Source: Escherichia coli
GTDB lineage: Bacteria > Pseudomonadota > Gammaproteobacteria > Enterobacterales > Enterobacteriaceae
Length of the DNA stretch: 64,000 nucleotides
NCBI RefSeq assembly: GCF_013122565.1
Contig: NZ_CP053258.1
Strand: one strand, 5' to 3'
Positions 1 through 19,984 of this stretch are shown here, piece after piece. The notes beneath the pieces were generated by a model that did no database searches, was not told the DNA's origin, and was given only the letters and a program-made list of their open reading frames with translations. The position numbers were made by a program, and so were the translations under genes. Each line of letters opens with the position of its first letter. Position 1 is the stretch's first letter.

Positions 1-1219
1 CATCAAAGGCGCTGGCATTGTGCTGCGGGCTTTTGTAATAGCCACGGAAGGTGTACGGACCGCGGGTCATCAGGCGTCCAACTTCCCCTTGCGGCAGTGG
101 TTTTCCTTCGGCATCGGCAACCCACACTTCATCGTCCGGACACATTGGGTAACCCTGGGTATGGATAATTTTCTCCGCGCTATCATCAAGTCGGGTGTAG
201 TTCACCAGCCCTTCCGCCATGCCAAACACCTGCTGCAACTGGCAGCCAATCTCAGCGGGAATACGCGCCGCAAGGGTGGCAGAAAGACGTGCGCCGCCGA
301 CCTGTAACAGTTTCAGCGAGGCAAGCTGCGCCCGGCTTTCGCCTTCAGCCAGCGCCTGCAACCACAGGCTGACTGCCGGCGGCACCAGCGCGGTAACGTT
401 AACCTGATGTTTTGCAATCAACGGGAAGCAAAGCGTGGCGCTGGGATCGGCCGCCAGAACAACCGTTCCTCCGGCAAGAAAGACGCCCAGCGATCCCGGC
501 GAACTCATGGCGTAGTTATGAGCCGCCGGGATCGCGCACAGGTAGCGTGTCTGTTGTGTGAACTGACAAATCTCGACGCTACGACGCACGCTGTAGTAGT
601 AGTCGTTATGAGTGCGCGGGATCAGCTTCGGTGTACCGGTGGTGCCGCCGGAAAGCTGGAAATAGGCCACTTCATCAGCAGGTGACGGCATAGCAGTAAA
701 ACCGTCTGCCGGATGGTTAATCGCATCCTGCAAGTTATGCTCACCGCAGTCGTTGTGCAGTTGCACCACGCGAATGGAGGAGTGCTCTGCAACAAATGTG
801 TTGAGGAAATCATCCCCGCTAAATAGCGCATGTTGGCGATCGGCAATCAGTAACGCCGGTTCAATCTGGCTGGCATAGGCGTTCAGTTCACTACGCTGAT
901 GGCTGAACAGCGCCAGCACCGGCGCAACGCCCAGTTTCAGCAGTGCGAAAAAGGTAATATACAATTCAGCGACGTTACCCAGTTGTACCAGCGCGGTTTC
1001 ACCAGGTTTAATGCCCTGACGGCGCAAACTACAGGCGAGGTTATCCGCCGCCTGATTCAGCTCCCGGTAACTCAACTGCCGCTCGCCGTCGATAACCGCG
1101 ATGCTGTCACTCGCAGCATGTCGTGTCAGAATGTCAGTCAATGGCAAATCCTGCCAGTAGCCTTTTTCCCGATAGCGACGGGCAAACTCTTCCGGCCAGC
1201 GGGTAAATGGAATGCTCAT
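1..1219 (-). CDS. entE: 2,3-dihydroxybenzoate-AMP ligase EntE, N-terminal part only (3' end lies beyond window start)
   Basis: Minus-strand frame from ATG (plus cat 1217-1219) reads [25 protein letters not shown]...; no stop before the window edge; sits immediately downstream of entC as in the entCEBA operon. Confidence 0.9.
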
Positions 1220-1228
1220 CCTCGCTCC

Positions 1229-2404
1229 TTAATGCAATCCAAAAACGTTCAACATGGTAGAAAGTTTGACGCCTGTTTCGCGCCACTCACCCAACGGTGA
1301 CGACGCAGGCACAATCCCCGCTCCGGCAAACAGACGCACCTGATTTTCCCGCAGCTTCGCGCAGCGGATGGTCACCACCCATTCGCCGTTACCTTCGCTG
1401 TCACACCAACCCACGATGCCGCCAAACAGTTCGCGGTCGAACGGCTCCAGTTCAGCAATAACCTGGGTCGCGGCCTGATGCGGGAAACCGCTCAGCGCGG
1501 GGGTCGGATGCAGCAGACAGGCCAGAGTCAGTGCGTTTTCTTGCGAATTCGCTTTACCTTCAAAGGGAGTTGCGAGATGCCACAGCGTCGGCGTGGTAAT
1601 CAGCTGTGGACAGGAGGGAACGTGTAACTCACTACTGCGTTCGCGCAGTACCTCTTTCATCGCCTGAGTCACCAGTTCATGTTCATGGCGATCTTTTTCT
1701 GACGCCAGCAGACGATTACCCGCTTCGCGATCGAGCACTTCATCCGGCTGACGACGCGCGGAACCGGCTAACGGAATGGAGCTAAAACGCTCGCCGTCTT
1801 TACGTAGCAGCAGTTCCGGGCTGGCCCCCAGCAGGACGCCACCATCTGCCAACGGCACATGGAAGTTGTAACTAACCGGGTTTTGCGCAATCAACCGTTC
1901 CAGCAATACGCCACTATCAATGGCGGCGTCAGTGGTGATATCAATCAACCGTGACAACACCACTTTGTCGACCTGCGGCGTGGCGGTAAGTGCGGCAGCG
2001 CGAGCAACCATCTGTTCAAACGTGGTTTGTTCCGGAATTGCCTGGCGTTCCACCACGTTCAGCGACTGGCTGCGGGTGAAACGGCGTGCGGAAGCTTGTT
2101 TTTCCTGACGGGAGAACGACTGCCAGGATTCAGGAATATACAGCGACGAAGGCTGACATGGATCGAAGGGAATCGCCCCGACCATCACCGGATTTTTGAT
2201 GCCCTGCGCTTTGGCGTCGGCAAACAGCGCGGCGAGTTTTTGCTGGAAGGGACTGTCGGGCGAATCCCCATTCACAGCCGGTTCATCGAAGCGGGCGAAA
2301 CATCCTGACGTCGTAAAACTGCGGTACGGCGACATAAAGAAAAAGCGATTGGGCGCAAGTGTTGCCATGGTCTGCTGTACTTCCTCAGCCAGTGACGTAT
2401 CCAT
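1229..2404 (-). CDS. entC: isochorismate synthase EntC
   Basis: ORF track 1229..2416; product [23 protein letters not shown]... recognised as EntC; start placed at the internal ATG giving 391 aa (track frame begins 4 codons upstream at a GTG). Confidence 0.92.
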
Positions 2405-2433
2405 ATCATCCTCCACAAAATGATAAAGGCTTT

Positions 2434-2452
2434 AATAATGATTATCATTTAT
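2434..2452. promoter_or_regulatory. Fur box in entC/fepB divergent promoter region
   Basis: aataatgattatcatttat closely matches the Fur consensus GATAATGATAATCATTATC, about 30 bp upstream of the entC start. Confidence 0.6.
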
Positions 2453-2610
2453 ATTTTCGGTCGCTAACCTAAAAGCAAACGCGCACTATGTCAACTCTTG
2501 AGGTAACGCAATCTGCAACTCGGGGTTGCATCTGGTTGTGGTTACAATGAAAATGAGAAGCATTATTGATGGATTCGCATAAGCGCAATGTGATGGCCTG
2601 CGCCGTTCTG

Positions 2611-2708
2611 CCCCCTCTCCCTTCCAGGGAGAGGGCTGGGGTGAGGGTTAATGCTCGCACCAGTGCTGGCTGTTCCCCTCACCCTCTCCCCAAAGGGGCG
2701 AGGGTACG
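2611..2708. repeat. GC-rich nested inverted repeats in the fepB 5' leader
   Basis: ccctctccc..gggagaggg..gggtgaggg then cccctcaccctctcccc..ggggcgaggg: complementary arms able to form alternative stem-loops; a short burst of high GC within an otherwise AT-rich leader. Confidence 0.45.
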
Positions 2709-2772
2709 GATTGTGCGCTTTGTCGAATTTGTCATTACGCCCTTAACCTTATTAATAACAGGAAGCTGATTT

Positions 2773-3729
2773 GTGAGACTCGCCCCGCTCTACCGCAATG
2801 CCCTTCTATTAACAGGACTTTTGCTTTCAGGAATAGCCGTAGTTCAGGCCGCCGACTGGCCGCGTCAGATTACTGACAGCCGGGGCACTCATACCCTGGA
2901 AAGCCAGCCGCAGCGTATTGTTTCCACCAGCGTCACCCTGACTGGCTCACTGCTGGCGATTGATGCTCCTGTGATCGCCAGCGGCGCGACCACGCCGAAT
3001 AACCGCGTCGCGGATGACCAGGGTTTTTTACGCCAGTGGAGCAAGGTGGCGAAAGAACGCAAACTGCAACGGCTCTATATCGGCGAACCGAGCGCCGAAG
3101 CCGTTGCCGCGCAAATGCCGGATCTGATTTTAATTAGCGCAACCGGTGGTGATTCGGCGCTGGCGCTGTATGATCAGCTTTCCACCATCGCCCCGACATT
3201 AATCATCAATTACGACGACAAAAGCTGGCAGTCGCTGTTAACGCAGCTTGGCGAAATTACCGGGCATGAGAAACAAGCGGCAGAGCGGATTGCACAGTTT
3301 GATAAGCAACTGGCGGCGGCGAAAGAGCAAATCAAATTACCGCCGCAGCCGGTCACTGCCATTGTCTATACCGCCGCTGCACACAGTGCCAATCTCTGGA
3401 CGCCGGAATCAGCACAAGGGCAGATGCTGGAACAACTCGGCTTTACGTTGGCGAAATTGCCCGCAGGGTTAAACGCCAGCCAAAGCCAGGGCAAACGCCA
3501 TGACATCATTCAGCTTGGTGGAGAAAATCTGGCTGCAGGGTTAAATGGCGAGTCACTATTCCTGTTCGCCGGTGATCAGAAAGATGCCGATGCTATTTAT
3601 GCCAATCCACTGCTCGCGCACCTGCCCGCAGTACAAAACAAGCAGGTTTATGCGCTGGGAACCGAGACGTTCCGTCTGGATTACTACAGCGCCATGCAAG
3701 TGCTGGAACGACTTAAGGCGCTGTTTTAA
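2773..3729 (+). CDS. fepB: ferric enterobactin periplasmic binding protein FepB
   Basis: 318-aa ORF with GTG start; signal-peptide-like N-terminus [26 protein letters not shown]; sequence recognised as FepB. Confidence 0.93.
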
Positions 3730-17028: not shown

Positions 17029-17067
17029 TGCTAACGTCAGATTGTTGACAAAGTGCGCGTCGTTCAT

Positions 17068-17164
17068 GCCGGATGCGGCGTGAACGCCTTATCCGGCCTA
17101 CAAAATCTTGCTAATTCAATATATTGCAGGACTACGTAGGCCTGATAAGCGTAGCGCATCAGGC
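17068..17164. repeat. pair of REP elements (BIME-like) downstream of fepA
   Basis: gccggatgcggcgtgaacgccttatccggcctac and gtaggcctgataagcgtagcgcatcaggc are canonical REP palindromes in inverted orientation. Confidence 0.65.
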
Positions 17165-17201
17165 AGTTTTGCGTTTGTCATCAGTCTCTAATACGGTCGA
17201 C

Positions 17202-17822
17202 ATGAAAACTACGCATACCTCCCTCCCCTTTGCCGGACATACGCTGCATTTTGTTGAGTTTGATCCGGCGAGTTTTCACGAGCAGGATTTACTCTGGCTG
17301 CCGCACTACGCGCAACTGCAACACGCTGGACGGAAGCGCAAAGCCGAACATTTAGCCGGACGGATCGCTGCAGTTTATGCGCTGCGGGAATATGGCTATA
17401 AATATGTGCCCGCAATCGGCGAGCTACGCCAACCTGTGTGGCCTGCGGGGGTATACGGCAGCATTAGTCACTGTGGGACTACGGCATTAGCCGTGGTATC
17501 TCGTCAACCGATTGGCATTGATATTGAAGAAATTTTTTCTGCGCAAACCGCAAGAGAATTGACAGACAACATTATTACGCCAGCGGAACACAAGCGACTC
17601 GCAGACTGCGGTTTAGCCTTTTCTCTGGCGCTGACACTGGCATTTTCCGCCAAAGAAAGCGCATTTAAGGCATCGAAGAGACAAACTGAAGCAGGTTTTA
17701 TGGACTATCAGATAATTAACTGGAATAAACAGCAGGTCATCATTCATCGTGAGAATAAGATGTTTGCTGTGCACTGGCAGATAAAAGAAAAAATAGTCAT
17801 AACTCTGTGCCAACACGATTAA
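17202..17822 (+). CDS. entD: phosphopantetheinyl transferase EntD
   Basis: ORF track 17124..17822 begins inside the REP element; start placed at MKTTHTSLPFAGHTLHFVEF; 4'-PPTase motifs GIDIEE and FSAKESAFK. Confidence 0.88.
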   Translation: MKTTHTSLPFAGHTLHFVEFDPASFHEQDLLWLPHYAQLQHAGRKRKAEHLAGRIAAVYALREYGYKYVPAIGELRQPVWPAGVYGSISHCGTTALAVVSRQPIGIDIEEIFSAQTARELTDNIITPAEHKRLADCGLAFSLALTLAFSAKESAFKASKRQTEAGFMDYQIINWNKQQVIIHRENKMFAVHWQIKEKIVITLCQHD

Positions 17823-17943
17823 TTGACAACATCTGGTACGATTCGCCCGCAGCCATCACTGACCGCGGGCGAAAGTGTAAAGCAGGTGCCCTACCATCCT
17901 GACCTGACAACCGGATATGCGGGGATTGCTCCCCGCACAACGG

Positions 17944-18096
17944 CTACTTCTTCGGTTCGTAAGCGAGAACAGCCTTAAACTCAATATTACGTTCCTTCAC
18001 CGTAAACTCACACAGCGAGTCTCCGACCAGAAGCGTAAATCCCAGTACCGTCAAACACAGCACTATGACTGCCACAAGGGCATATTTCGTCAGCAT
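17944..18096 (-). CDS. hokE: Hok-family type I toxin HokE
   Basis: 50-aa product [50 protein letters not shown]; the 78-aa track ORF is an artefact whose first codons lie inside IS150. Confidence 0.85.
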
Positions 18097-18192
18097 GTTT
18101 ATATTGCCTCCATGCGAAGAAGGGACTACCATCCAAATTGCTAGGTTTGGGTAGGTAGCCCCAGGGTGTACTGACCCCAAAAAGTTGGACAG

Positions 18193-19044
18193 TTAAACAC
18201 GAGGCATATAGGTCTGATTCCGATATTCAATTGGAGTCAGACCTTTTAATTTCAGGCTAATTCTTCTGCTGTTGTAGTATTCAATATATTCCGTAACAGC
18301 ATCCTTCAGTTCGCTTATATTACTGAACTCATCAAGATAAAAACACTCCGACTTTAAGGTTCCAAAGAAACACTCCACCACAGCATTATCCAGACAATTG
18401 CCTTTTCTGGACATGCTTTGTTTAATACCATGTTCTTTAAGGATATTTTGATATCTTCTCATACGATACTGCCATCCCTGGTCAGAGTGCAGAACAGGAT
18501 GCTCGTGAGGATTAAGCTTTTTGAATGCCTGATCGAGCATATTCTCAACCATGTTCATCACTGGTCTTTCCGAAAGGCTGTAAGAAATAACTTCATTGTT
18601 GAAGAGATCTATTACTGGAGACAAATACAGCTTGCGCCCATTGACTGCAAATTCAGTAACATCGGTAACCCACTTCTCGTTTGGCCGCGTAGCCTTGAAA
18701 TCTCTTTGGAGAACATTGGGGGCGGTTTGCCCTACCTCTCCTCTGTAAGAGCGGTATCGCTTGACCTTAATCGCTGCCTTAAGTGAGAGGGTTCCCATCA
18801 GGCGCTGAACAGCTTTATGGTTAATCTGTTTCCCTTCTCGATGAAGAGACAGCGTTACCCTACGGTATCCGTATCGGCCTCTATTCTCATGATAAATCTC
18901 ACCAATACGCTTTTTAACGTCCGCATACTTGTCAGGCTTGCTGAGAGCCTTTAGATGGTAATAAAACGTACTGCGCGGTATCTCCGCAGCCCTGAGAAGC
19001 TCATCAAGAGGATAAAACTGCCTTAGCTCGTTGAGTACTTTCAC
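18193..19044 (-). CDS. insK: IS150 transposase OrfB (InsK)
   Basis: 283-aa [34 protein letters not shown]... with integrase-core region; overlaps the insJ 3' end as expected for a frameshift-fused IS3 transposase. Confidence 0.9.
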
Positions 19045-19562
19045 TTTTTCGTGGGATGAGCTAAGGCTTTCAGCTTTTTTAGATACACAAGCCGCGTTTC
19101 AAGAAATCGAACTTGCCTTTCAAGATCCTCAATGCGTCGGTCTTTTGACAGCTCCAATGCTGATGCCGCTTTTTCTGGATCAACTGATATTGCAATGTTT
19201 CTTTTGGTGCCAATCTTGAGCGCGCGTAAACCAGCTTCTCCGCGCTCTTCATAAACCTTCAGCCACCTGGCTACAGAACCACTACCAGCAAGCATAAAGT
19301 GAGCAGCAGCCTGATTAAGGGACATGTGCTGCTCGATCACAGCTTTCACGACCTTAATACGCAACTCTGGATCAGCACTAACACCTTTAGGTTTGGGAAT
19401 TAAACCTTTTTCTCCATGTTTTTCATAGAGGGCAACCCATGTCCTGACCTGGGTTCGGGGGACACCAAAACGTGCCGAGATGATCCTGTAACCATCATCA
19501 GTAGTGAAGTAGTGATTCACGACTTCAAGGCGCTTTTCAAAAGGGTATTTTGGCTTTGACAT
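19041..19562 (-). CDS. insJ: IS150 transposase OrfA (InsJ)
   Basis: 173-aa ORF MSKPKYPFEKRLEVVNHYFTTDDGYRIISARFGVPRTQV... (helix-turn-helix N-terminus). Confidence 0.9.
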   Translation of the reverse strand: MSKPKYPFEKRLEVVNHYFTTDDGYRIISARFGVPRTQVRTWVALYEKHGEKGLIPKPKGVSADPELRIKVVKAVIEQHMSLNQAAAHFMLAGSGSVARWLKVYEERGEAGLRALKIGTKRNIAISVDPEKAASALELSKDRRIEDLERQVRFLETRLVYLKKLKALAHPTKK

Positions 19563-19984
19563 ATCAGGGGCTATTCCATTTCATCGTCCAACAAAATGGG
19601 TGCAGTACAGGGTTGATAGAAATATCTCCTGGGGCTTCATCTTTCCAGACCTCAGAGTAAACCTGAAACCGGAAAGCTTCAGGCACCCGCCGTTATCTTA
19701 CCCTTCCTCAACAAAATAGCTGTTTATTTATACAGTGAGTCCTGTTTCGGACTTCTCACTCCCCATTTGATCAACTGAAGCTGAACCCGTTTTTTTCTGC
19801 ATGCCGCAATCGTCAAAATTCTTCGCCACCAGCCAGCCGTGCCATAACTTGTCACATTGCAAAAGTAGCCAAATTGCTTCAGGCACCATCAGTTCACCAT
19901 CACCAAAAAAAAGAAACATTCCAGAACTTCCGCATCTCGCCCAGCCGCTCCGACTTCTATACTGAATAGAAAACGCCAACATAA

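Follow-up and report, generated by a model that had tools for sequence, protein, structure and literature searches.

A G4-N6-C4 target of IS186 at the apex of a predicted stem-loop in the hokE mRNA of Escherichia coli

Work by SaiSree, Reddy and Gowrishankar from 2001 reportedly gave IS186 the consensus target G≥4 N3-6 C≥4 and described a hot spot for the element in the lon promoter, and Sengstag et al. are said to have found in 1986 that IS186 duplications at an identical target vary in length. Pedersen and Gerdes are likewise said to have made a statement in 1999 on IS186 at hokE, and the terminal 3' stem-loop of the truncated R1 hok mRNA was reportedly described by Franch, Gultyaev and Gerdes in 1997. 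At the lon hot spot, IS186 occurs at the same position in the opposite orientation too (PMC3045373). Downstream of gef/hokC lies IS186A, which PMC3562002, citing Pedersen and Gerdes (1999, Mol Microbiol 32:1090), describes as an insertion thought to disrupt the fbi (fold-back inhibition) element. For the hok mRNA of R1, 19 of the 22 loss-of-function substitutions in the 3' UTR break C-G pairs of the terminal stem (PMC9841398), and substitutions in this stem abolish the truncated mRNA (Le Rhun et al. 2022, PMC9841398); neither the G345A nor the C358A mutant contains the truncated active mRNA, probably owing to 3'-to-5' exonucleases (PMC9841398). The K-12 insertions of IS186 at hokC and hokE, the G/C-run consensus, the lon hot spot and the architecture of hok mRNAs are already published. 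The motif described below is a recognition of this known phenomenon and the accompanying census an incremental extension of it; the recurrence on a population scale, the use of both orientations and both target alleles, and the insertions in hokB may be new to the literature.

We analysed a stretch of 64,000 nucleotides of the E. coli contig NZ_CP053258.1 (assembly GCF_013122565.1; hereafter designated the window), in which an IS186-type motif lies empty between entD and hokE. The closest counterpart is IS186B of K-12, which is found at the same locus, hairpin and position, with the duplicated GGATTACTCC corresponding to positions 17923-17932 of the window; the window differs from it in being unoccupied, in having G for A in the spacer of the motif, and in having its hokE disrupted on the 5' side by IS150. 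The lon hot spot shares with the hokE site a GC-rich palindrome of a G-run and a C-run around a short spacer and recurrent insertion in either orientation, whereas an insertion at lon has a strong selectable phenotype (Lon deficiency) and one at hokE means the loss of a dispensable toxin locus. IS186A at hokC of K-12 resembles the hokE case in its paralogous post-stop hairpin, GCGGGGATCACTCCCCGC, and in its 10-bp duplication, with the insertion 22 nt past the stop codon as against 21 nt at hokE, whereas the two K-12 copies face in opposite directions with respect to their hok genes. The R1 hok stem-loop is, like that of hokE, GC-rich with a 4-nt loop, and is situated 7-9 nt past the stop codon and upstream of fbi and the terminator; unlike the hokE stem, its stem GGCGGGC/GCCCGCC contains no G4/C4 runs and falls outside the IS186 consensus. 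Our reading, to which we assign a probability of about 0.93, is that the hokE motif has a dual role, serving as a natural hot-spot target of IS186 in the DNA and as the apex of a hok mRNA stem-loop in the RNA.

The unoccupied target between entD and hokE

The phosphopantetheinyl transferase gene entD (17202-17822, plus strand), assigned from its open reading frame and from the 621-bp entD annotation in orthologous loci, is convergent with hokE (17944-18096, minus strand), which encodes a 50-residue type I toxin and was assigned from its open reading frame, its translation and orthologues annotated as hokE. The hokE stop codon occupies 17944-17946 on the minus strand. As the original prediction had stated, the coordinates of both stop codons place the motif GGGGATTGCTCCCC (17921-17934, read directly from the sequence and without strand) within the 121-bp spacer 17823-17943. 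The motif makes up the central part of GCGGGGA-TTGC-TCCCCGC (17919-17936), a perfect inverted repeat with a 7-bp stem and a 4-nt loop. The window contains this one match to G4-N6-C4 only, and dinucleotide shuffles of the window gave a mean of 0.66 matches, at least one being present in 52 of 100; as a bare pattern, the motif is not beyond chance. Its significance comes from orthologous and paralogous IS186 insertions elsewhere, not from the frequency of the pattern. No IS186 terminal repeat was found anywhere in the 64-kb window, so the site, which is contiguous and holds a single copy of the 10 bp that IS186 duplicates, is unoccupied. Upstream of entD, two REP-like palindromic units, GCCGGATGCGGCGTGAACGCCTTATCCGGCCTAC and GTAGGCCTGATAAGCGTAGCGCATCAGGC, lie between fepA and entD at 17060-17170; they form an ordinary BIME-type repeat. 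The entD allele of the window is divergent, and the best identity among 5,426 complete E. coli genomes was 96.7% for the entD-hokE segment and 98.3% for the junction of the spacer, hokE and IS150. The strain behind the window is therefore not one of these genomes, and may belong to Shigella or to an E. coli lineage that has yet to be sampled.

The occupied form of the locus is found in K-12 MG1655, where IS186B, annotated as a mobile element at 608007-609351 with insL2 (b0582), lies between hokE and entD, just as the prediction had stated. With the point of insertion marked by a slash, the entD-side junction of K-12 reads ...ATGCGGGGATTACTCC / CATAAGCGC... and the hokE-side junction ...GCGCTTATG / GGATTACTCCCCGCACAACGG; in the orientation of the window, these become ...CCGGATATGCGGGGATTACTCC / CATAAGCGCTAACTTAAGGGTTG... 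and ...CAACCCTTAAGTTAGCGCTTATG / GGATTACTCCCCGCACAACGGCTAC..., respectively. When IS186 is taken from C to G, it measures 1339 bp and leaves a 10-bp duplication, GGATTACTCC, the boundary of which is ambiguous by 1-2 bp per side, because the ends of IS186 (C...G) repeat target bases, so that the duplication is readable as 8-12 bp. The alignment with the K-12 junctions that the prediction had proposed as its check was carried out, and the duplication was found to be the centre of the motif, GG[GGATTACTCC]CC. The K-12 target allele and that of the window are one spacer base apart (ATTACT vs ATTGCT).

All three IS186 copies of K-12 are situated in G4-N6-C4 palindromes and flanked by 10-bp duplications, and the window motif has the same form, as the prediction had proposed. 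Their targets are GG[GGAGTAATCC]CC at hokE, GG[GGATCACTCC]CC at hokC and GG[GGATAATTCC]CC in the nupC terminator. IS186A is inserted within the hokC hairpin with GGATCACTCC as its duplication, and IS186C within the nupC terminator AAAAAAGCCGGGGATAATTCCCCGGTTTTTTT with duplication of GGATAATTCC. The shuffle rate, when extrapolated, corresponds to about 50 G4-N6-C4 motifs per 4.6-Mb genome, and we infer that the placement of three out of three copies in such motifs cannot be chance. The IS186C site itself looks like a bidirectional nupC/pdeA terminator stem-loop, an indication that IS186 can use GC-stem terminators in general as targets.

Occupied and empty sites among complete genomes

A census was carried out over 5,426 complete E. 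coli genomes, in which the units are genomes, including many clonal laboratory derivatives of K-12 and tandem hokE duplications, and not independent events. The hokE site was occupied by IS186 in about 2,000 genomes (~37%). A 160-bp query for the K-12-type junction on the entD side, covered to at least 80%, detected 1,727 genomes, and a synthetic junction query carrying the opposite IS end detected the opposite orientation in 286 genomes at 99-100% identity. Allele counts were obtained with SNP-centred queries of 41-45 bp, for which seeding is possible only on an allele match: the ATTGCT allele, which is that of the window, was occupied in 563 genomes and empty in at least 2,820, and the ATTACT allele was occupied in 1,421 and empty in at least 1,602, some genomes being counted under both alleles because hokE is tandemly duplicated in them. 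An exclusive targeting of the ATTACT allele was rejected, since both alleles were found both occupied and empty. The tandem duplication is present in many E. coli strains, with a unit of ~503 bp and a post-stop hairpin in each copy, as exemplified by IAI1 (1095-1750 of L006) and AR_0055 (2600-3254 of L005), and the copies can differ in their spacer allele, as in O157:H7 PV15-279, which has ATTACT and ATTGCT. In AR_0055, a block of ABC-transporter and SDR genes stands beside the hokE copies in the usual place of entD.

Both junctions were read in two further strains. In KOr019, IS186 is inverted relative to K-12, with identical position and duplication, and still lies between hokE and entD; K-12 and KOr019 carry GGATTACTCC / GGAGTAATCC at the equivalent of window positions 17923-17932. 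In STEC308, a 1339-bp IS186 is flanked on both sides by GGATTGCTCC, and removal of the element together with one repeat leaves a 121-bp spacer that is identical to that of the window at 119 of 121 positions, without differences in the motif. The 10 bp that IS186 duplicates on insertion, GGATTGCTCC in the window (17923-17932, without strand), are therefore defined by the duplications in STEC308, K-12 and KOr019. The proposal that the window preserves the empty target of a before-and-after pair is supported by these data, STEC308 representing the "after" state with the exact allele of the window.

If the target arises from the RNA hairpin, other hok hairpins containing G4/C4 runs would be expected to carry IS186 as well, and this was found for hokB and hokC. 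The hokC hairpin was occupied in about 1,658 of the 5,426 genomes (~31%). The hokB hairpin, GCGCGGGGATTTTCCCCGCGC, which has the form G4-N5-C4 and is empty in K-12, was occupied in 14 genomes of the census, as in the O121 strain 201805972, where the duplication is GGATTTTCCC. The hairpins of hokA (G3/C3), hokD (with an interrupted C-run) and plasmid hok (GGGC/GCCC) fall outside the G4/C4 consensus.

Because both orientations and both target alleles are occupied, the junction sequences indicate that the hokE hairpin is a real and recurrently used IS186 hot spot. The copies in opposite orientation could instead go back to one ancestral insertion that was later inverted or recombined, so that the site would not be truly hot, and recombination between IS186 copies could in principle change the orientation of the element. 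This is improbable, since KOr019 and STEC308 retain their hokE and entD flanks and intact, identical duplications, which a chromosomal inversion between two IS copies would not leave; two target alleles have been hit, moreover, the allele being present in both duplicated copies, and the preference is directly evident from the independent insertions in the hairpins of hokC and hokB. Another conceivable origin of the empty state in the window is precise excision of a former IS186, which would restore the single 10-bp copy in a sequence indistinguishable from an ancestral one, in a species where occupied and empty states of both alleles coexist. We regard this as slightly less probable still: precise excision of IS elements is rare, the empty site is the majority state and is found in diverse backgrounds including O157:H7, and the window site bears neither footprint nor rearrangement.

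The motif as an element of hok mRNA

A structural role of the motif in hokE mRNA, which was absent from the original prediction, is suggested by its position in the minus-strand transcript. The inverted repeat (core, 17919-17936) is extended by an inner 10-bp helix (17916-17939) to a stem-loop at 17908-17946 in the hokE mRNA 3' UTR (minus strand), the outer helix of which extends into the stop codon. The hairpin is predicted to fold with -26.1 kcal/mol (z -6.1) on the minus strand, that is, in the sense of hokE, as against -19.3 kcal/mol on the plus strand in the sense of entD, the greater stability on the hokE strand being due to G-U pairs that extend it. An intact hokE transcript of strain 90-3040, starting with GCGGGUGCCU as its inferred 5' end and ending with the terminal hairpin, was folded and gave -181.3 kcal/mol (z -8.9). 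In the minimum free energy (MFE) fold, the motif forms the tip of a stem-loop directly past the stop codon, and a terminal 14-bp hairpin is formed as well. In the MFE and centroid folds of the 90-3040 transcript, the 5' GCGGGUGCCU pairs with the 3' AGGCACCUGC, and this predicted pairing of the two ends is the tac/fbi arrangement described for hok mRNAs. The fbi-like element of the window, the AGGGCACCUGC region at 17882-17891 (minus strand), is complementary to the 5' end of the transcript; a GCACC box is kept at the fbi position in hokA-E, and the IncFII hok locus has the equivalent pair GAAGCGCC / GGCGCUU. Further downstream, a GC-rich hairpin with a 14-bp stem at 17842-17873 (minus strand) is the likely hokE terminator; with its flanks, it folds with -34.4 kcal/mol (z -5.9) on the minus strand, the plus-strand fold being far weaker. 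IAI1 has a U-rich tract, GAUUUCGUUUU, after this terminal hairpin in its distal tandem copy of hokE. Searches of Rfam gave nothing at the motif, and in the hokE leader only a partial sok match of 26 bits, below the gathering score of 59.

The layout recurs throughout the family. A GC hairpin is found 6-9 nt past the stop codon in all hok paralogs and in plasmid hok, for which an IncFII locus encoding a protein identical to R1 Hok was compared, and hokA-hokD and IncFII hok share the order of stop codon, 6-9 nt, GC hairpin with a 3-5-nt loop, ~30 nt, GCACC-type fbi and terminator. Since hokD and plasmid hok come out of register when the seven post-stop regions are aligned with MAFFT, the stems were compared by inspection: they read GCGGGGA/UCCCCGC in hokE, GGCGGGGA/UCCCCGCC in hokC, GCGCGGGG/CCCCGCGC in hokB, GGCGGGAA/UUCCCGCC in hokA and GGCGGGC/GCCCGCC in plasmid hok. 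The apical pair of the stem, as compared by eye, is G-C, A-U or C-G across the family. The stem-loop thus appears to be conserved across the hok paralogs, with changes on both sides of its pairs. By analogy with R1 hok, the hokE hairpin would be the positional homologue of the R1 terminal stem and a putative barrier to exonucleases.

That the motif is only an RNA element or terminator of the convergent entD and hokE genes, with a coincidental match to IS186, is the least likely of the alternatives: a strong hairpin on both strands between convergent genes and the ~0.66 G4-N6-C4 matches expected per window by chance speak for it, yet the ~2,000 occupied genomes have IS186 exactly in this hairpin, with both alleles and both orientations represented, and the paralogous hairpins of hokC and hokB carry it too. 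The RNA role does not compete with the target role; the two are compatible. An exclusive RNA-element reading is refuted by the junction data. As to termination, the motif was rejected as a Rho-independent terminator, because there is no U-run on either strand and the terminator scan was empty there, and a terminator-like hairpin lies further downstream at 17842-17873.

The dual role, by which the motif is both an IS186 target and an mRNA stem-loop apex, can be outlined as follows. IS186, a member of the IS4 family, would prefer GC-rich palindromes of the form G(≥4)-N(3-6)-C(≥4), and a cut with a stagger of roughly 10 bp, centred on the palindrome, would lead to duplication of GG-N6-CC. In the minus-strand RNA, the same motif would form the apex of the conserved post-stop GC stem-loop of hok toxin mRNAs. 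In R1 hok, the processed transcript that can be translated ends 3' in this stem-loop, which shields it against 3'-to-5' exonucleases. A strong G/C stem required in the RNA would then give rise incidentally to a DNA target for IS186, and it is presumably because the RNA stem creates this target that the hairpins of hokE, hokC and, occasionally, hokB collect the element. Insertion would split the stem-loop and displace the fbi element and the terminator by ~1.3 kb, and is expected to disable the normal maturation of hokE mRNA. The predicted split and displacement at hokE are consistent with the view of the IS186 insertion at gef/hokC cited above.

IS150 in the hokE leader and its consequences

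In the window, hokE is interrupted by IS150, a feature that the original prediction did not mention. The 1443-bp element (insJ/insK) occupies 18167-19609 on the minus strand and was identified from its ends and flanks, its transposase open reading frames and the length annotated in K-12. It lies in the 5' leader, 70 bp upstream of the hokE ATG, with the ends TGTACTGACCCC... and ...GGGTGCAGTACA and a 3-bp duplication, GGG, at 18164-18166 and 19610-19612. The detached 5' part of hokE (19613-19690, minus strand), recognized by its collinearity with intact loci, includes the tac-like 5' end GCGGGUGCCU at 19681-19690 and the mokE start codon ATG at 19640. IS150 thus cuts hokE off from its promoter, its tac-like 5' end and the mokE start, and no intact transcribable hok/sok locus is found in the window, the locus being split by the element. 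The hairpin of the window is probably without RNA function in this strain and a relic as RNA, because IS150 separates hokE from the promoter and the 5' leader. As DNA, the motif remains a valid target for IS186.

The combination of the IS150 junction with an empty IS186 site is common to 108 complete genomes, with a best identity of 98.3%, and in KOr019 the hokE locus carries both IS150 and IS186. In K-12, IS150 is present in the equivalent region of hokA. Recurrent IS150 insertions in hokC/nhaA, hokE and trg/mokB have been observed in experimental evolution (PMC5419217). A more general interpretation, that the chromosomal hok family consists of landing pads for IS186 through its G/C stem and of sites for IS150 in its leaders, that is, of 'IS sinks' hit recurrently and site-specifically, whose repeated inactivation may be selected, is put forward only tentatively, and we consider it rather doubtful.

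The current understanding of IS186 and of hok/sok systems is unchanged by these results. The locus provides a natural before-and-after pair for IS186 target choice, with an exact-sequence "after" state in other strains, and an example of a transposase target in DNA that arises from a constraint on RNA structure. In annotation, it accounts for the IS186 copies that flank hokE and hokC in K-12, and for the E. coli genome it marks the site as a predictable point of instability beside the enterobactin cluster.
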